From NCBI RefSeq assembly GCF_055900595.2, contig NZ_CM148325.1: a stretch of DNA of 64,000 nt; one strand, written 5' to 3'. Under the pieces are notes generated by a model. It was not told the DNA's origin. It saw only the letters and a list, made by a program, of their open reading frames with translations, and ran no database searches. A program made the position numbers and the translations under genes. How positions within the stretch are numbered: position 1 is the stretch's first letter; the number at the start of each line of letters is the position of its first letter. Below are positions 36,839 to 55,117 of the stretch, piece by piece.

Positions 36839-36920
36839 AGAAAAATTATTATGACAAGCCTCTCATTCTCTTGTCATTTCCCCCCCATTTAGGCACAATG
36901 CGCCGCTGTCAAAAAATGAC

Positions 36921-49331: not shown

Positions 49332-49368
49332 AAAAAAGCCGCGTCTCCCGGAGAAGACGCGGCCTGAC
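49332..49368 (-). terminator. Rho-independent terminator downstream of the minus-strand secreted-protein genes
   Basis: gccgcgtct...agacgcggc hairpin with a U-run on the minus strand. Confidence 0.55.
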
Positions 49369-49506
49369 GGGTGAAATGAATAAGGTTTATTGTCTGAGAG
49401 GCCTTTCACTGGCGAGCCACGCATTAAGCGGCTTTCCGGTAACAATGGCTGGGGCTGTATTTACCTTTGATATTAATAATGTGCAGAGAAACGCATGGTT
49501 TACTCC

Positions 49507-49917
49507 TTAGATTTTAAGTTTGTCCTGGGCTACAACGACAGGTTTTCCGGATGTGTCGATGACTCCTACCGTCGGTACGCCATTTTTGATTTCGAAGAAC
49601 GGTTTGTTGCTACCTGAGCACAGTTGATTGTCCCCGTATTCAATCATTTGTGCTTTCCCGGTTTTCAGGTTAACTACCGAGACAGTGTAGTCGTAGCACC
49701 AGGCACCACCACGTTCAAGCACGAAAACATAGCTGTTATCTTTATAGTTGAACTGATTCTTTGTCTGGCAATTCATACCGTCAATTTCGGTACAGGAAAA
49801 CGCTTCTGTAGTATTAACGTATTTGATGTTATTTGGCAGTTTTACTTGTTTCGCAGTAGCGAAGACAGAGAACAGAATAGTTACAGCAACGAGTAAAGTT
49901 TTGATAAAAGTTTTCAT
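49507..49917 (-). CDS. Small secreted Cys-containing protein, unknown function
   Basis: 136-aa ORF with a clear signal peptide (MKTFIKTLLVAVTILFSVFATA); low-GC gene. Confidence 0.6.
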   Translation of the reverse strand: MKTFIKTLLVAVTILFSVFATAKQVKLPNNIKYVNTTEAFSCTEIDGMNCQTKNQFNYKDNSYVFVLERGGAWCYDYTVSVVNLKTGKAQMIEYGDNQLCSGSNKPFFEIKNGVPTVGVIDTSGKPVVVAQDKLKI

Positions 49918-49932
49918 GATAGACTCCTTAAA

Positions 49933-50421
49933 TTAGTTAACCGCAGCTACGTAGTTTTTCACCAGATACGCGAATTCATGCACGCCAATTTCACCGAACC
50001 AAACCAGGTAGGCCGGGTCATCTAAACCAAAGTAACGGTAGCCAACAACTTCATGGGTTTTTGGGTTATAGAGTGTTACGATAAAGTCCCAGCCGCAGGT
50101 ATTGGCTTTGCAACCGTCGCCCTGGAACCAGACTGTACCGTTAATGTTTACTGGCGTGATACCTCCACCAGGGCCATCCATATAGCCGCCTTTACCGAAC
50201 ATGCCGCTCAGTCCGACCGGTTTTAATGCTTTGTCGATAGCGGCTTTGTAGGTAGCGTCACCTTCGTACAACTCGTACGTTGATGGACACGCTCCAGGTT
50301 GTTCAGCCCAGGCTTCCGGGTTACAACTAAGAGCTTGTTTTACGGTAGCCGCTTCTGCGTTAAAGTTAAAGCCCGTGAACAGAACCGCCAGAAATAACAT
50401 AAGGGTATGTAAACGTTTCAT
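49933..50421 (-). CDS. Secreted Cys-rich protein, unknown function (C-terminal part of ORF 49933..50724)
   Basis: Internal Met followed by a signal peptide (MKRLHTLMLFLAVLFTGFNFNAEA) with an SD-like ggaag upstream; the upstream in-frame 101 codons encode another signal-like segment. Confidence 0.5.
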   Translation of the reverse strand: MKRLHTLMLFLAVLFTGFNFNAEAATVKQALSCNPEAWAEQPGACPSTYELYEGDATYKAAIDKALKPVGLSGMFGKGGYMDGPGGGITPVNINGTVWFQGDGCKANTCGWDFIVTLYNPKTHEVVGYRYFGLDDPAYLVWFGEIGVHEFAYLVKNYVAAVN

Positions 50422-50751
50422 TGTAAATATTCTTCCGTTGTAAATGGCGCTGGAAAATTTCTCATCAGTGAAACCTTCCGGAAGTTTCCCCCCCTTGTAT
50501 GATGTATATCGCCAGTATTTTATTTCATCCCGGCTGTAATTTTTATATTCCCCGGCACGTGCAATAACGCTGACCAGAGATATAAGGCTCATTAATAACT
50601 TTACAGGTAATTTCATAATTAAATTTCCAGTGAGTGAATTGACAGGTGAGGGGTAAAACTTTCTCTCAGGTAATATATATCTGAAAATATTTTCAATAAC
50701 ACCAGACAGGAAAAACACCACCACAGGCGGTGGCGTTTCTTTGGGGCGTCT

Positions 50752-51822
50752 TTATTTAATCCGGGCCATCGCGTTTCTCAGTGCCAAATCTGCCTCTTCC
50801 GTTATATCCAGGCTTTTCTGCAATACCGCCTCTGACCGGGTCAGTGCCTGACGTGCTGCCAGCGGTTTCCGGATATGCTCCATCGCCAGCATCGTGTCTT
50901 CATAGCCCTGCTGACGCCAGGCGTCGGTATGTGCCGATGTAAAACTGAGCAGACCGCCGCTGTTGCCACCATCACCTGCATATTTCAGCCTTTTCCGGGG
51001 ACGGATCTCAAGGATTGTGGTGTCCGGAAAAGCCTGGCGATCCCATAAAGAACCGTCACTCAGATGCGTCACAATCACCATATTGCATCCGGCATCGACC
51101 AGAGGTGTCACAGGGGTATTTCCCTGCATATTTCGCCATCCTCCCATACCACCATCACCGAACATTGTCCCCTGAACCTCACGGGGACGGAACAGCAGGG
51201 GCAGCGCGGCTGACGCAAGCAGAGCCTCTTTCTGCTGTCCGCGGGGCAGGCTCTGGATATGCTGAAAAACGGCGTTTTTCGTGGTTCCGACACCCAGTTC
51301 AGCACGAATGCAGTCAATAATATCCTGCATGCCCCCTTCTGTGGGGTACAGCGACACATACAGCGGTAGCCCGTCTGCCAGAGCATCAGTATCAAGATAA
51401 TGATCCATCAGCGCTGTCAGGGGTTCATCTGACAACAACGGCTGAGCCATCAGATTGTCAAACCCGTTGATTGTCGATATATGGCGAAGAAGCGTCGTAA
51501 GCAGTGCTCCTGCACGTCCGGGGATCTGGCAGAGGTTCATTGCCTGGAACAATTTTTTCAGCAATGAAAAGTAAACCAATCTGTTTACCGACAGCACCTG
51601 ATTATTCCCCAGATGATCCCAGAGCGCCTCCAGGCGTACGGCAGCTTCTGACAGATCGGGAGAGGCCACGATAATGGCACCATTGAATGCGCCAATGCTG
51701 GCCCCTGAAACCATGCTGATCTGTGTACCACACTCTGCCAGTGCCTTAACCACTCCCGCCTGATAAGCGCCCACCGCCCCGCCACCGGACAGCACCAGCC
51801 CCGTTTTCATTTCTGTACTCAT
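50752..51822 (-). CDS. Patatin-like phospholipase
   Basis: 356-aa ORF with a Gly-rich oxyanion motif (SGGGAVGAYQAG), GxSxG nucleophile (GASIG) and DGG catalytic Asp motif (FGDGGMGG); start overlaps the upstream gene stop. Confidence 0.85.
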   Translation of the reverse strand: MSTEMKTGLVLSGGGAVGAYQAGVVKALAECGTQISMVSGASIGAFNGAIIVASPDLSEAAVRLEALWDHLGNNQVLSVNRLVYFSLLKKLFQAMNLCQIPGRAGALLTTLLRHISTINGFDNLMAQPLLSDEPLTALMDHYLDTDALADGLPLYVSLYPTEGGMQDIIDCIRAELGVGTTKNAVFQHIQSLPRGQQKEALLASAALPLLFRPREVQGTMFGDGGMGGWRNMQGNTPVTPLVDAGCNMVIVTHLSDGSLWDRQAFPDTTILEIRPRKRLKYAGDGGNSGGLLSFTSAHTDAWRQQGYEDTMLAMEHIRKPLAARQALTRSEAVLQKSLDITEEADLALRNAMARIK

Positions 51823-52724
51823 GCAGCCCCCTTCTGAAATATTTCATCGACCATACTTTCAGAGAGGCGTTCTGCAGAGCAGAGGCGAGGCATGCGAACC
51901 GGTAAGTGTTCTGCAGCCTGCGTGGTTGACCAGATCACCGGATGCTGCTCTTCACTGCACCAGTCTCCCAGCCAGTTAATCGCGTCATGCCACTCGTTAT
52001 CTGCCTGCTCCCGGCCCTGACCACCAAGCCAGTCCAGAGTGTTCAGACGCACGGTTGCACTACCGCCACTCTCCTGTGCCATCTGCGTTAATGCTTTATG
52101 TCTGAGAATATCCAGTAGCTGGTTAACCTGGCCTGTTTCGCTCTGACGTATCACATCACCAAACGCGCCCCAGCGAAGCTCTTCAAGTGCCACATAACAA
52201 CGTCCGGCAGGGGAAAATGACGCATATCGCCCGGCGCTCCACCATGAGAATATCTGCTCAAGATGTAACTGCGCCCGCTGAACCTGGTCAACACGGTGGA
52301 GTTTTTCTTCAAGATGATTCAGTTTATGGTGAACCTGATCGGCCAGGGTGAGTAACTGCTCCCGCGTATCTGCGGAATAATGCGCCAGCCTGGCTGTATC
52401 ACTGACCAGTGAACTGACCCTGTCGTTTACCCGGGTAATCGCGTAGTTTGTGGTGGCAAGTGACGTTGTCATCTCCGTCAGCCAGCGCAGGGACGCCTCA
52501 ACGCCCTGTGCAAGCGACGCATTGATGGCATTCTGCCGTGCAGCGCCTTCGCCGGTCAGCCCCTCTTTTAAACGCCGGAAGAACGTGCGCTCTCCGGCCG
52601 TGCGGATATGCTCCTGTGCAACATCGATTCCGTTTGCGAAATCAACCACAAATTTTTCAGGAAGACAGGTGAGTACCTGACATACCCGGTTATCAGCAAT
52701 TTGTTGAATAAATGGTGAAGTCAC
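51819..52724 (-). CDS. Hypothetical protein, predicted helical, no recognisable domain
   Basis: 301-aa ORF whose start and stop overlap the dynamin-like and patatin-like genes by 4 bp each. Confidence 0.7.
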   Translation of the reverse strand: MTSPFIQQIADNRVCQVLTCLPEKFVVDFANGIDVAQEHIRTAGERTFFRRLKEGLTGEGAARQNAINASLAQGVEASLRWLTEMTTSLATTNYAITRVNDRVSSLVSDTARLAHYSADTREQLLTLADQVHHKLNHLEEKLHRVDQVQRAQLHLEQIFSWWSAGRYASFSPAGRCYVALEELRWGAFGDVIRQSETGQVNQLLDILRHKALTQMAQESGGSATVRLNTLDWLGGQGREQADNEWHDAINWLGDWCSEEQHPVIWSTTQAAEHLPVRMPRLCSAERLSESMVDEIFQKGAA

Positions 52725-55117
52725 AGCATTGTCTCCAGCTCTTCCCTCAGCGCCTTACTGTCAGTAATGAGCTCAGGAACCCTTTCATTTAATGCCTGAA
52801 GTCGCCCGGTAAGTCGTTCCTGCGCCTGCTGATCGCGTTTATGATCTTCAGAGCTCTGAATCAGCGTGTTACGCAGTTGTTCAACTTTCTCCCTGAATGC
52901 GCAGAAAAAGGCATCGATTTCCTGGCGGACGGGCTGGTTAATATCCTGCTCAATGGATGCCTGCAGCTCCCCGAAATATGCCCGGGTCAGTGACATAACT
53001 TCCTCTCTGACCTTGTTGATATTGATCACGCTGCGACTCACATCCTCGTCATAGTTTTCCCAGCCCAGGTCACTGGTGCCAAACCATCGACAAACGGTTC
53101 CCCATACGCCACTCTGCCGACGGCGACGGGTGACGGTCTCCGTTCTTTCCTCCATAAGCGCACTCAGATTTATTTTTACCGCGAGCCGGGTCTGTAACTG
53201 GCTGACTGCCGGAAAACTGATTTTTACGGTAAAGCCCTCATCCTCCAGGCGGGCATTGATGCGACCGGCAATGTTTTCTGTGGCGTACAGGGCCGTGCCA
53301 CGAAAACCTGTTTCAATCCCGCTGACGATTTTCTCCAGCTCAGGCCGGAACTGTGCTTCAGCCTCACGGTGCAGGCTGGTCACGGTCGATTCGATTTGCG
53401 TCATCAGTTCAAGGGCTTCCCTGCGATCACTGAATTTTATTTCGGGGCTGTCCGGGGCAAAATCTCGTTTCCTGTAATCCTCCCGGCCCTGGTTGTTGAT
53501 ACCGGACCATTGAGAAATTTTCCCCCATAATCCGGACTGAGACCTTCGTTGTTCTGCGTCTTCTTCCTCCAGCATTTGCTGTTCTTTGCGTTTACCGCTT
53601 CTGAAATAGTCATTCAGCTCCTCTTCCAGTGAGGTGCAGACCCCCGTCAGTAATTCCCGGGTTTTAGTATCGATCTCCTCCATGGCCATTCTGACATCAG
53701 TGGTCATCTGCTCCTGACAGTCCGCGATTTCCCGGATATCCGCAAGCAGGCTGGTGATATGCGACTGCAGTGACTGAATGCTTTGCTGTAGCCCCTGATG
53801 GCGTAACAACAGGTATTCACTGATATTTTCTGCATTCTGCATCAGTTTTGCGGCGGCAGAGTCAACCGCCAGTGCCGCAGCTCTGGAATGTGAGCTCTGT
53901 ATGACTTCCGTTATCAGTTGATCGATAAGTGAGCCTTCCCACAGGTCTGTCGCCCCTTCAGTTGCCAGTTCACTGTCTTTACAGACGTATTCTTTTTTCA
54001 TGCAACCGAAGGCACCTCTGATAAAATCATCGACCCAGGCTTCATCAACAGGAAGGGTTCCGTTTTTCCGTAACTCATGAAGCGCACGGTTAGCCAGGTA
54101 TGCCTGGCGTGAGGATCCGGGATAAACGCGGGAGGCGGGCAGCACATTGCTGTTCAGCATTGCCGGAACTTTCTGGCGTACGGCATCTGCCCCATCGCCA
54201 TTGCGGTCTTTCTCATCAAATTTATTGACCAGTACAAACAGGCGGCCGGCTGATACGTCAGCAATGGCATTAAGCTCTTTACGGACGTCTTCATCCGCTT
54301 TTGAGTTCATCTGTGTGTAATCCATCACAGCCAGAACCGCAGAGGCTTTCTGCAGTTGATCCCGCATCATCACTTCCATCTGCGGTTGTCCGGCCTCATT
54401 AGGGCCGGGGGTATCCAGCAGTGTGAGTGTTCCCTGGCATGCATCCATCCCCACCAGATGGCTGAATTCCACGTCGATCACCGGCAGTTTCTGCACTTCT
54501 GCGTATTCATCAAAAGGAAATTCAGTCCCCATTGCCGCAGCAAGACGAACCAGATCGTTTAACGATGCCAGTCCGGTAAAGATTTCCTCCTCCCCGTGGT
54601 ATTCATTTTTGAGCCAGCCATCATCCGTCAGAATATCCAGCAGTTCGCGGGTATCCCCGGTTTGCTGCAGGGTCTGTGCGACCTGCTGTCCTGCCGGGGT
54701 GGCGAGTTTTTCCTGCAGTGTGATTAATAAATTGCGGACAGGCTGAATATGTTCCAGATGGAGAACCGGCTCAGTTTTTCCGGGAACGTGGCGGATGAGC
54801 GTCGGTACAGAGGTCATGGGGCGGTTACGGTTAGGCAGAATTTCCTGCCCCACAATGGCGTTGATGGTGGTTGATTTGCCTGCTTTCATCGTGCCGACAA
54901 CAGCCAGCACCATCTCCCTGCGGGCGGTTTTGATTTGTTCGCCCTCCAGCTCCTCAATTCTTTTCAGTGCTTTCTGTTTATCAAAAAGCAGTCTGTTTTC
55001 GTTCTTACTGTCAGATAACACATCTGGCTCCTCAACCATTTGCCGGAGCAGATTAATGTTCAGTTGCAAAAGTCGGTCGGCTTCATCACAAAGCAGGGCG
55101 ATGTTCTTTTCGTGCAT
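52721..55117 (-). CDS. Bacterial dynamin-like large GTPase
   Basis: 798-aa ORF with G1 P-loop GTMKAGKST (aa 75-83), G3 DTPG (aa 235-238), G4 NKFD (aa 298-301), and a long helical C-terminal half with two repeated RxQSG.WG...W motifs. Confidence 0.85.
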   Translation of the reverse strand: MHEKNIALLCDEADRLLQLNINLLRQMVEEPDVLSDSKNENRLLFDKQKALKRIEELEGEQIKTARREMVLAVVGTMKAGKSTTINAIVGQEILPNRNRPMTSVPTLIRHVPGKTEPVLHLEHIQPVRNLLITLQEKLATPAGQQVAQTLQQTGDTRELLDILTDDGWLKNEYHGEEEIFTGLASLNDLVRLAAAMGTEFPFDEYAEVQKLPVIDVEFSHLVGMDACQGTLTLLDTPGPNEAGQPQMEVMMRDQLQKASAVLAVMDYTQMNSKADEDVRKELNAIADVSAGRLFVLVNKFDEKDRNGDGADAVRQKVPAMLNSNVLPASRVYPGSSRQAYLANRALHELRKNGTLPVDEAWVDDFIRGAFGCMKKEYVCKDSELATEGATDLWEGSLIDQLITEVIQSSHSRAAALAVDSAAAKLMQNAENISEYLLLRHQGLQQSIQSLQSHITSLLADIREIADCQEQMTTDVRMAMEEIDTKTRELLTGVCTSLEEELNDYFRSGKRKEQQMLEEEDAEQRRSQSGLWGKISQWSGINNQGREDYRKRDFAPDSPEIKFSDRREALELMTQIESTVTSLHREAEAQFRPELEKIVSGIETGFRGTALYATENIAGRINARLEDEGFTVKISFPAVSQLQTRLAVKINLSALMEERTETVTRRRRQSGVWGTVCRWFGTSDLGWENYDEDVSRSVININKVREEVMSLTRAYFGELQASIEQDINQPVRQEIDAFFCAFREKVEQLRNTLIQSSEDHKRDQQAQERLTGRLQALNERVPELITDSKALREELETML

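Follow-up and report, generated by a model that had tools for sequence, protein, structure and literature searches.

A probable deletion relic reads in frame into a predicted Ivy-family gene on an Escherichia coli island

Does a run of seven G inside a long open reading frame (ORF) of an E. coli island mark a phase-variable switch, a sequencing or assembly slip, or two genes fused by loss of a stop codon? These options were raised in an earlier note on the window, by which we mean the whole 64,000-nucleotide stretch of contig NZ_CM148325.1 (assembly GCF_055900595.2) that was analyzed. The long ORF (49933..50724, minus strand) encodes 263 amino acids from a GTG start; its first ATG, at 50616 (hereafter ATG1), gives the 227-residue PGAP model WP_000775500.1. 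Read from ATG1, MKLPVKLLMSLISLVSVIARA... continues in frame, with no stop in between, into a second Met codon at 50421 (ATG2; MKRLHTLMLFLAVLF...), just as the note had described. Judged by eye, each segment is laid out like a Sec signal peptide, with n, h, and c regions and an A-x-A cleavage site (ARA↓G and AEA↓A, respectively). Ca. 42% of finished E. coli genomes, among them O157:H7, O104:H4, ST131, and Nissle 1917, carry WP_000775500.1 or one of its alleles. A literature search with the WP accessions of the small proteins at this locus found no papers, and scanning the 227-, 162-, and 136-amino acid proteins against Pfam, NCBIfam, and PADLOC returned nothing usable. The features of the locus are collected in Table 1.

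Table 1. Features of the fusion locus and its surroundings, in window coordinates.
Feature	Position	Strand	Basis or remark
Variable cargo slot, holding the fusion and the 136-aa gene in the window	49420..50667	-	Strain alignments; boundaries approximate, within ca. 10 nt
Intrinsic terminator directly after the patatin stop codon	50716..50732	-	7-bp stem with 5 GC pairs, then T run
Relic of a 180-aa secreted-protein gene (5' fragment, 65 codons)	50422..50616	-	BLASTP against L007:4098-4637
Signal peptide of the relic, MKLPVKLLMSLISLVSVIARA	50554-50616	-	Within the relic
G7 homopolymer, AAG GGG GGG AAA (KGGK)	50488-50494	-	Inside the relic
Deletion junction	50422..50436	-	Local alignments; ambiguous within ca. 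14 nt of microhomology
Predicted Ivy-family periplasmic protein gene, 162 aa plus stop	49933..50421	-	Homologues, profile, AF2, Foldseek
Predicted Ivy-like signal peptide, MKRLHTLMLFLAVLFTGFNFNAEA↓A	50350-50421	-	Read from the sequence
Predicted disulfide-bounded loop C-K-A-N-T-C, residues 104-109	50095..50112	-	HMM alignment to 1gpq; alignment A3
Predicted 136-aa secreted all-beta protein gene, 4 Cys	49507..49917	-	Own signal peptide ATA↓K; strong Shine-Dalgarno
Strong intrinsic terminator closing the two-gene unit	49336..49365	-	13-bp stem with 8 GC pairs, then T run

The leader between the two Met codons is homologous to the N-terminus of a 180-amino acid protein encoded in another E. coli locus, L007. 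The BLASTP alignment starts at residue 1 of both sequences and has no gaps (E=4e-18, 31/63 identical). At 49% identity, this is the nearest intact relative of the window's leader; no closer full-length parent of this allele was found among 5.8 billion proteins or, at megablast sensitivity, in E. coli genomes. In local alignments, homology to the 180-aa gene stops at ...GGAAGAATA, and the TTTACA-ATG that follows matches the leader of an Ivy-like gene, described below. The deletion took ca. 117 codons of the 180-aa gene, together with the gene that followed it, so that codon 63 is now followed directly by sequence that starts two codons ahead of the Ivy-like ATG, with the frame kept. An intact 180-aa gene occupies the same position past the same patatin terminator in loci L007-L010. 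In L007 the next genes are one of 128 aa, which has decayed, and an Ivy-like one of 160 aa, and loci L011 and L014 hold intact genes in the order 128/161/136. The decayed gene of L007 and the order in L011 and L014 thus show that the ancestral arrangement was 180-aa gene, 128-aa gene, 160-aa Ivy-like gene, as kept in E. coli L007. N-terminal homology, a discrete junction, and a parent arrangement elsewhere, the three marks of gene fusion by deletion, were therefore all found in comparisons with P0082, P0083, P0085, and L007: two genes were indeed fused, as the earlier note had allowed, with a deletion rather than the loss of a stop as the cause. A 111-nt query across the junction was covered to at least 80% in all 2284 matching records and the leader itself occurs in 2285, which points to a single event; one junction is shared by all of the ca. 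2284 of 5426 complete E. coli genomes (42%) that carry the leader. We are fairly confident that a single ancient deletion created the 227/263-residue ORF as a chimera.

Among its three alleles, the leader has accumulated seven nonsynonymous changes to one synonymous change (pS at most 0.024), so it shows no purifying selection. The leader is also young (at most 4% divergence), and both its lack of stop codons and its nonsynonymous excess therefore rest on only eight substitutions. The upstream 65 codons would, on this evidence, be a decaying relic. An RNA element was considered as the reason why leader and upstream region are near-identical in otherwise diverged alleles, and rejected, as there was no Rfam match at E≤1 and the fold was unremarkable (z-score -1.5). 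The alleles form a mosaic because the leader has a recent common origin and recombination breakpoints lie inside the second signal peptide.

The suggestion that a miscounted homopolymer had joined two separate genes in frame, i.e., that the fusion is a sequencing or assembly error, has virtually no chance of being right for the window. Long-read assemblies do often miscount homopolymers, and a control G7 run is recorded as G6 in 1.2% of cases, but the in-frame G7 is the majority state at our locus, with the same sequence in ca. 1260 independent complete genomes. Moreover, the fusion is independent of the run, because the upstream ORF has no separate 3' end, the remainder of its gene having been deleted. 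The G7 census and the junction census have thus already refuted this explanation.

The part of the ORF that begins at ATG2 lies on a mobile island and appears to encode a divergent member of the Ivy family that had gone unrecognised. Alone, the 162-aa protein has no Pfam match at E<0.1 and falls below every Pfam threshold. Of ten homologues scanned (E 1e-16 to 1e-6), eight match PF08816 above the 21-bit cutoff, and a family profile, built on alignment A3, retrieves only Ivy chains among 177,635 PDB sequences (E 7e-8 to 5e-7). An AF2 model of the protein (pLDDT 88.5, pTM 0.79) has the predicted Ivy fold: Foldseek ranks 1-8 are all Ivy structures (4ps6, 1uuz, 1gpq, 1xs0), with probability 1.00 and TM 0.63-0.73, and the next hits have probability <0.1. 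Because the match runs through homologues and the A3 profile, not through the protein itself, we place the 162-aa protein in a distant PF08816 subfamily. A literature search for island-borne Ivy homologues found nothing, and tblastn gave no match to the gene in 50,697 phage records.

The predicted protein resembles Ivy (inhibitor of vertebrate lysozyme; YkfE of E. coli, PA3902 of Pseudomonas aeruginosa) in its predicted N-terminal Sec signal peptide, its modelled fold, its profile-level homology (E ca. 7e-8), and an invariant Cys-x4-Cys-Gly loop at the position of the inhibitory CKPHDCG loop. Unlike Ivy, to which it is only 16-20% identical, it misses the Pfam model, has an extra N-terminal helical segment and a second conserved Cys pair (C33/C45), and is encoded within a CP4-type island, in its cargo slot, not at the ykfE locus. 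The two loop cysteines, C104 and C109, are invariant in alignment A3, but the residues between them vary: CKANTC in the window, CKAHAC or CKSNAC in other alleles, and mostly CEAHNC in remote homologues. In the structures of Ivy with hen egg-white lysozyme (HEWL), the central His of the loop reportedly enters the lysozyme active site. The window allele has Asn in place of this His, which most relatives and canonical Ivy keep, so that its inhibitor activity and its target are things we infer from the family. Ivy is a periplasmic inhibitor of c-type lysozymes and lytic transglycosylases (PMC2267010 and, through Clarke et al. 2010, PMC3660660), and the CKPHDC motif has been described for it (PMC3660660). 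By analogy, the island protein would act in the periplasm, inhibiting a peptidoglycan-cleaving enzyme (lysozyme or lytic transglycosylase) by way of its disulfide-bounded CKANTC loop. If so, E. coli often carries a second Ivy-type candidate inhibitor of peptidoglycan hydrolases. Alleles vary precisely in the loop by which Ivy acts as an inhibitor, a concrete, testable lead toward lysozyme tolerance, lytic transglycosylase control, or immunity to muramidase toxins. Less probably, the island proteins, which have Asn, His, or Asp at the His position, could provide immunity against muramidase toxins or phage lysins, not host lysozyme.

Which of the two start codons is used matters for the annotation. 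In eight divergent homologues of 160-161 amino acids, and in all remote homologues, the signal peptide begins at the Met of ATG2; the n/h/c signal ending in AEA↓A, apparently common to all homologues, would be internal in the fused reading. Comparison of ORF boundaries across homologous loci, a check that the earlier note had called for, found no N-terminal extension in any homologue outside the single junction. The Ivy-like part is under purifying selection (dN/dS ca. 0.2, at pS 0.19-0.46), and the IS1-truncated locus L018, which lacks ATG1, keeps the ATG2 ORF. Shine-Dalgarno pairing in the window is -3.3 kcal/mol before ATG1 and -3.5 kcal/mol before ATG2, compared with -5.7 to -8.8 kcal/mol in intact relatives and -8.8 kcal/mol for the intact 180-aa gene. 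Because both sites are weak, their strength is uninformative for choosing a start; the deletion weakened the Ivy-like gene's own ribosome-binding site. A consensus scan of the minus strand upstream of ATG1 found no convincing sigma-70 promoter, and a TTGAAA...TATATT pair noticed there by eye has a spacer of just 13 nt. We conclude that the 162-aa frame from ATG2 is probably the real coding unit, and that WP_000775500.1 is probably over-extended by 65 residues. The functional product would then be the 162-aa protein, exported by its own signal peptide.

PGAP favors the long model, which counts against a start at ATG2, and the 227-aa protein could instead be a genuine bipartite exported product whose 44-residue N-terminal module adds a function or a membrane tether. 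We consider this unlikely. The open frame is retained in ca. 2100 genomes and in three alleles, the residues after ATG1 form a textbook signal peptide, the Shine-Dalgarno of ATG2 is no stronger than that of ATG1, and the fusion is far commoner than the unfused arrangement. An in-frame join has a prior of one in three, however, so selection is not needed to account for it, and a leader that changes mostly at nonsynonymous sites, that persists in frameshifted and IS-truncated forms beside an intact ATG2 ORF, and that is absent from all homologues outside one junction is hardly that of a functional module. Furthermore, an internal signal following a cleaved one would be either a stop-transfer segment, leaving the 4-Cys domain in the cytoplasm, or an uncleaved hydrophobic insert, an argument that draws on Sec topology rules. 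Any ribosomes that start at ATG1 would place one more signal peptide, which is cleaved, and a tail of 44 residues before the internal signal, and their product would probably be mislocalised. The situation resembles known annotation over-extensions, in which a relic is read through into a neighboring gene: a deletion leaves a 5' fragment in frame with the next gene, the pipeline takes the longest ORF, and variants of plus or minus one base are then labelled as frameshifted. The locus is called a "frameshifted" pseudogene in ca. 70 genomes, and in nine of nine such loci that were read, the conserved ORF is intact. Unlike the usual over-extension, the fusion here has reached 42% of finished E. 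coli genomes, and the relic brings with it a complete, plausible signal peptide and an ATG, which keeps a long product conceivable.

The G run lies in the relic part of the ORF. The earlier note had its strand and its KGGK coding right but placed it 10 nt away, at 50478-50484. There are two G7 runs in the window, compared with 6.1 expected from shuffles. The homologous codon is TGG (Trp) both in the intact 180-aa proteins (NGW; AAC GGC TGG) and in the allele of L003/P0005 (KGW; GGGGTGG), and in a third allele, that of L002, a substitution of A to G has produced an in-frame G8. The run thus appears to have arisen by a recent TGG to GGG (Trp to Gly) substitution in the relic, of which it would be an accident. 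A census of consensus assemblies of complete genomes counted ca. 1260 records with G7, 21-27 with G6 (the count of 27 may include partial matches), and 41 with G8 (the full-length matches among 43 listed); the bands of at least 99% identity include a few short partial matches, with at most six records never covering 80% of the query. Among genomes with the G7 allele, therefore, ca. 95% keep G7 and ca. 5% differ by one G (G6 ca. 2%, G8 ca. 3%). The G6 and G8 variants each occur on at least two haplotypes, and G8 recurs and is inherited within sets of clonal strains. At the control G7 run, G6 makes up 1.2% and G8 0.05% (2 of 4127); many of the control G6 hits are CDC-series assemblies, which we take to be PacBio-only. 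G8 is thus about 60 times more frequent at our locus (41 of ca. 1330 records) than at the control, which means that the run is not wholly inert. For the in-frame G8 allele, which is longer and has 791 records, a ninth G was gained in only five. In the G6 variant, the upstream ORF stops in an ATGA overlap with ATG2, and in G8 it stops 45 nt upstream. All nine variant loci read (G6, G8, and IS-truncated) have an intact ATG2 ORF, and plus or minus one variants would be tolerated because they leave it untouched. Length variants of the kind the note proposed to look for thus do exist, but they are rare and clonally inherited, without high-frequency variation. The G run behaves as an ordinary, rarely slipping homopolymer, and its variants are very probably stable mutations or assembly errors, not phase variation.

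The phase-variable switch that the note had put forward would make the run a contingency tract, in which slippage toggles fused (G7) and out-of-frame states and so switches the amount or location of the Ivy-like protein; the short upstream ORF of G6 would couple translation into ATG2, and that of G8 would stop early. The locus does share with the contingency loci of Neisseria, Haemophilus, Campylobacter, and Helicobacter a G homopolymer near the 5' end of an ORF and strains that differ by one base, with a shift in reading frame. In addition to the G6 and G8 variants in finished genomes, the 60-fold excess of G8 over the control and the neat stop/start overlap produced by G6 speak for this possibility. 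Nevertheless, we think it very improbable. In an enterobacterium proficient in mismatch repair, seven G would make a short contingency tract. Nearly all G7-allele genomes keep their length, G6 is close to its control frequency, and the rarity of gains in the 791-record G8 allele is the opposite of length-dependent hypermutability. Unlike a contingency tract, the run derives from a point substitution at a Trp codon in a relic, and related sequences have it interrupted or lengthened in frame (GGGGTGG, in-frame G8, AAC GGC TGG); G7 runs are not enriched in the window; and, in the assemblies counted, lengths do not change at high frequency, including within clonal lineages, where G8 is inherited. 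A change of frame affects only the relic, leaving the ORF of the downstream protein as it was, so that no functional product would be toggled. A related idea, to which we give an equally slim chance, is that evolution has turned the relic leader into a new switch that controls translation of a periplasmic muramidase inhibitor. In the G7 state, ribosomes that initiate at ATG1 may pass ATG2, yielding an Ivy-like protein with two signals that is mislocalised or tethered; with G6, a 65-codon upstream ORF whose TGA overlaps ATG2 may couple translation to the properly exported form; and with G8, translation may be uncoupled. If that were true, the heritable G8 excess over the control run would reflect selection on the expression state. 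Returning to the reading we prefer, that of an ordinary homopolymer in a relic, the locus offers no new biological principle. It does illustrate that a homopolymer within an ORF is insufficient for calling phase variation, and that exact-length variant counts in thousands of finished genomes, combined with a control run of the same length, can separate assembly error, inherited mutation, and switching.

The fusion and the 136-aa gene fill a slot whose flanks are conserved between strains and whose content differs in strain alignments: ca. 150 nt in FORC_028, three other signal-peptide genes in M8, and the 180-, 128-, and 160-aa series in L007. The slot past the patatin terminator thus carries arrays of small genes for predicted Sec-exported proteins. 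In keeping with the earlier note, the 136-aa and 162-aa parts have four Cys each and signal peptides that can be read from the sequence. The small genes lie downstream of the patatin gene in the same orientation, as the note had observed, but the two terminators of Table 1 bound them as a unit of their own that is not part of the patatin operon; the first is kept in FORC_028, M8, and L007, and the second in FORC_028 and L007. The 136-aa gene begins 16 nt past the Ivy-like stop, and the two genes would be co-transcribed. The GC content is 0.39-0.44 over 49550-50150 and 50300-50750, compared with ca. 0.55 in the patatin operon; the low GC that the note had attributed to the small genes is nevertheless patchy, not uniform, because the middle of the 162-aa gene is at 0.49-0.51. 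Acquisition separate from the high-GC operon, also proposed in the note, is supported, since the small genes sit in a variable slot and are independently distributed.

The note further suggested that the secreted proteins might neutralise the patatin lipase. It is highly improbable that the pair serve the patatin phospholipase, or the dynamin/RdcB-like operon, as dedicated antidotes or partners, even though they are adjacent to patatin and in the same orientation in ca. 1880 genomes. A terminator separates patatin from the small genes, and elsewhere the slot next to the patatin operon is empty (FORC_028) or filled with other cargo (M8, L007). Conversely, L011 and L014 have both small genes but no patatin gene, and in L004 and L018 the two lie beside IS elements. 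Thus, neither the obligatory co-occurrence nor the co-transcription expected of a toxin and its antidote was found. In addition, the patatin protein has no signal peptide, whereas the small proteins are predicted to be exported, and an Ivy fold points to peptidoglycan hydrolases, not lipases. On the dynamin-YjcZ-patatin operon, we found nothing in the literature beyond the RdcA/RdcB paper (PMC6510439).

The backbone of the window's island includes DUF932, antirestriction, YeeS/T/U, and CbtA genes, and a yeeP-like GTPase gene is shown in the 100%-identical locus L001. Arrays of the YfjT type, on E. coli islands like CP4-57 and CP4-44, offer the closest comparison for the slot: L011 and L014 hold Ivy-like and 136-aa genes head-to-tail, along with two YfjT (PF27224) genes and further genes for proteins with signal peptides, and a Pfam scan of the neighbors in the L011 array gave no match. 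Unlike these arrays, the window keeps just two array members and a stump.

The long ORF downstream of the patatin gene, which PGAP models from its first ATG (ATG1) as a 684-nt gene for the hypothetical protein WP_000775500.1, carries two signal-peptide-like segments: MKLPVKLLMSLISLVSVIARA, followed by G, at ATG1, and MKRLHTLMLFLAVLFTGFNFNAEA, followed by A, at an internal ATG (ATG2). A 12-nt gap with a strong Shine-Dalgarno sequence separates its stop codon from the ATG of the 136-aa ORF, whose all-beta product has four Cys, is predicted to be exported and is nearly restricted to E. coli; a structure search with this protein gave no informative match. GC content is 0.39-0.44 at either end of the two-gene unit and ca. 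0.5 midway through the long ORF. The unit lies on an E. coli CP4-44-type island with the gene order GTPase, dynamin/CrfC-like, YjcZ/RdcB-like, patatin, the two small genes, DUF932, antirestriction, YeeS/T/U and CbtA, and a 1.5-kb query of the locus was covered to at least 80% in 1879 of 5426 complete E. coli genomes.

Features of the locus and of the control homopolymer, in window coordinates
Feature	Position	Strand	Remark
Patatin operon	50752-55117	minus	stop and start codons overlap
Patatin gene	50752-51822	minus	
Intrinsic terminator	50716-50732	minus	hairpin and T run, 3' of patatin gene
Long ORF	stop 49933	minus	263 aa open from GTG 50724; 227 aa from first ATG, 50616
Internal ATG (ATG2)	50421	minus	
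Ivy-like loop	50095-50112	minus	
136-aa ORF	49507-49917	minus	
Second terminator	49336-49365	minus	strong
Cargo slot	49420-50667		flanks approximate
Control G7 run	36880-36886	minus	intergenic

The long ORF joins the remnant of one gene, in frame, to an unrecognised gene of the Ivy family, whose annotated model is probably too long as a result. Divergent homologues, which share 56-81% identity with this ORF, have a length of 160-161 aa and start exactly at the second Met (MKRL...). In four E. coli loci (L007-L010), an intact gene for a 180-aa secreted protein follows the patatin stop, terminator and ca. 60-nt spacer seen in the window, and behind it lie a decayed 128-aa gene copy and a 160-aa gene, in this order; in two metagenome loci (L011 and L014), genes of 128, 161 and 136 aa stand in intact order inside an array of signal-peptide genes. 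Codons 1-63 of the window ORF align without a gap, from Met1, to residues 1-63 of the 180-aa protein (31 of 63 identical; BLASTP E=4e-18), and three more members of the 180-aa family share this N-terminus. In local alignments, homology to the 180-aa gene stops at ...GGAAGAATA, and the nine bases after it, TTTACA-ATG, are those of the 160-aa gene leader. A single deletion therefore took ca. 117 codons from the 180-aa gene, eliminated the entire 128-aa gene and placed the 180-aa stump two codons 5' of the next gene's ATG, in frame, an outcome with a chance of one in three. All 2284 records matching a junction-spanning 111-nt query cover it to at least 80%, and leader carriers equal them in number; the fusion therefore arose once and is now in 42% of finished E. 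coli genomes. Of the readings offered in the earlier note, two fused genes was thus right in substance, with a deletion as the cause according to the alignments of the leader with the 180-aa gene; an assembly slip finds no support.

Comparison of three alleles, those of the window, L002 (95% identity) and L003 (89%), separates the two parts of the ORF. The leader has seven nonsynonymous changes versus one synonymous change (pS ≤0.024), and the 145 nt 5' of ATG1 are near-identical; in the 162-codon downstream part, pS is 0.19-0.46 and dN/dS is 0.17-0.21, with divergence beginning within the second signal peptide. Because the leader and the 145 nt upstream are near-identical and the 162-codon part is diverged, the locus is a mosaic in which a young 5' region, common to the alleles, precedes old and diverged versions of the real gene. 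Recent common descent explains the conserved 5' region; an RNA element was considered and rejected, as no Rfam family was found and the fold (z = -1.5) is not unusual. Shine-Dalgarno pairing is weak at both ATG1 (-3.3 kcal/mol) and ATG2 (-3.5 kcal/mol), compared with -5.7 to -8.8 kcal/mol in intact relatives, and the choice of start site is therefore unreadable from sequence.

The G7 run in the leader, raised earlier as a possible phase-variable switch, does exist (AAG GGG GGG AAA), at 50488-50494 on the minus strand and not at 50478-50484. The window has two such runs where 6.1 are expected, so they are not enriched. The residues homologous to its codons are N-G-W in intact 180-aa proteins, K-G-W (GGG TGG) in the L003/P0005 allele and K-G-G (GGG GGG) in the window; the relic's TGG codon therefore mutated to GGG, which created G7. 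The L002/ST131 allele has an in-frame G8, through an A to G substitution. We counted tract lengths by exact matches to 76-78-nt queries in the 5426 complete genomes, where the window's sole other G7 run, which served as the control, is present in 5416.

Tract lengths in complete genomes (number of records)
Run	G6	G7	G8	G9
Leader, window-type allele	≤27	1266	41 full-length (+1 frameshift)	
Leader, L002/ST131-type allele			791 (in frame)	5
Control, core intergenic	48 (1.2%)	4077	2 (0.05%)	

The G6 and G8 counts of the control run help to gauge how often finished genomes under-call homopolymers, and the census yields, as a by-product, a calibrated way of testing homopolymer claims with such genomes. 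Because leader G6 (ca. 2%) is near the control's frequency and many control G6 records look like CDC long-read assemblies, by accession series, much of the G6 signal may be under-calling. Leader G8 is in clear excess, occurs on at least two haplotypes and recurs in clonally related strain sets from different isolation years; these variants are neutral mutations that are stably inherited, rather than states of a flickering switch. Gain of a further base by the longer, in-frame G8 allele is very rare. G6 leaves a 65-codon upstream ORF whose TGA overlaps ATG2 (ATGA) and G8 a 50-codon one, and the ATG2 ORF was intact in all nine G6, G8 or IS-truncated loci read, which PGAP still calls 'frameshifted'. 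Stable inheritance of G8, the rarity of base gain and the intact ATG2 ORF thus leave a phase switch unsupported; a regulatory effect of the G6 and G8 states is possible, and no population data call for one. Two records gave 79-nt matches to a 78-nt query, suggesting G9 on the window-type allele in strain KE58 (NZ_CP141075.1) and G10 on the ST131-type allele in strain GmM077 (NZ_CM183654.1).

A HMMER search with the part downstream of ATG2, across 1.84 billion representative proteins, returned remote homologues of 150-320 aa (E 1e-16 to 1e-6), and Pfam PF08816 (Ivy) was above its gathering score in 8 of the 10 scanned. Four Cys are conserved throughout a 21-sequence alignment, whose members all have a signal peptide at the N-terminus and no upstream extension. 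The profile of this alignment matched only the four Ivy sequences in the PDB (E 7e-8 to 5e-7), aligning the C-x4-C-G loop with Ivy CKPHDCG. Foldseek with the AF2 model (pLDDT 88.5) placed Ivy chains in all eight best positions (probability 1.00, TM 0.63-0.73), with nothing beyond Ivy chains above probability 0.1. In the periplasm, Ivy inhibits c-type lysozymes (PMC2267010); PMC3660660 describes its conserved CKPHDC motif and notes, citing Clarke et al. 2010, that it also restrains lytic transglycosylases. The loop reads CKANTC in the window allele, CKAHAC or CKSNAC in sister alleles and mostly CEAHNC in remote relatives, so the position of the key His in Ivy varies here. We infer that the protein is a candidate periplasmic inhibitor of a peptidoglycan-cleaving enzyme; the analysis yields a corrected gene model for an Ivy-family gene and, on an island that is widespread in E. 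coli, a second candidate inhibitor of the Ivy type. Among E. coli alleles (protein alignments A2 and A3), the loop is CKANTC, CKANAC, CKAHAC, CKSNAC or CKSDAC with the flanking Cys and Gly fixed, which may reflect diversification of a contact loop. Damage seen in single strains comprises a stop codon within the Ivy-like part (2014C-4423, L003:1684-2361), ISEc12 inside the gene (Ecol_656, L004:4000-4350) and IS1 removing ATG1 (300709, L018:416-1798).

The two small genes occupy a cargo slot of variable content, with the patatin terminator on one side and the DUF932 gene on the other; the flanks of the slot are sharply conserved. The slot is nearly empty (ca. 150 nt) in FORC_028 (L005:3050-3390), contains three other signal-peptide genes, of 155, 209 and 150 aa, in M8 (L006:3050-5700), and holds the 180-aa gene, the 128-aa relic and the 160-aa gene in L007 (3990-5800). 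The 128-aa signal-peptide gene copy in L007 (4660-4975) is frameshifted and internally deleted, showing that gene decay in the slot is also ongoing in other lineages. The two small genes are also found far from patatin (L011, L014) or by IS elements (L004, L018). Because a terminator intervenes, the small genes occur without patatin and the patatin slot occurs with other content, a dedicated antidote role of the small genes towards the patatin is unsupported. At L011:3598-6309 and L014:4106-6309, head-to-tail arrays of six and five small genes, respectively, each with a Sec signal peptide, run in the order YfjT/PF27224 (two genes in L011, one in L014), 128 aa, 161-aa Ivy-like, 136 aa and 129 aa, upstream of a gene for an 834-aa SMC_N protein and with no patatin operon there; array members other than the YfjT/PF27224 and Ivy-like ones had no Pfam match.

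The patatin operon encodes a dynamin-family GTPase of 798 aa (CrfC is its best NCBIfam match, at 556 bits, under cutoff), a YjcZ/RdcB-family protein of 301 aa and a patatin-like phospholipase of 356 aa. It seems to be a paralogue of the RdcA/RdcB GTPase system (PMC6510439) that is carried on the island and includes an added lipase. Its PADLOC matches were limited to weak ones, effector and LeoBC, and the operon may act in defence or abortive infection. In strain LHM10-1, IS3 truncates the patatin gene (L024:1-1278).
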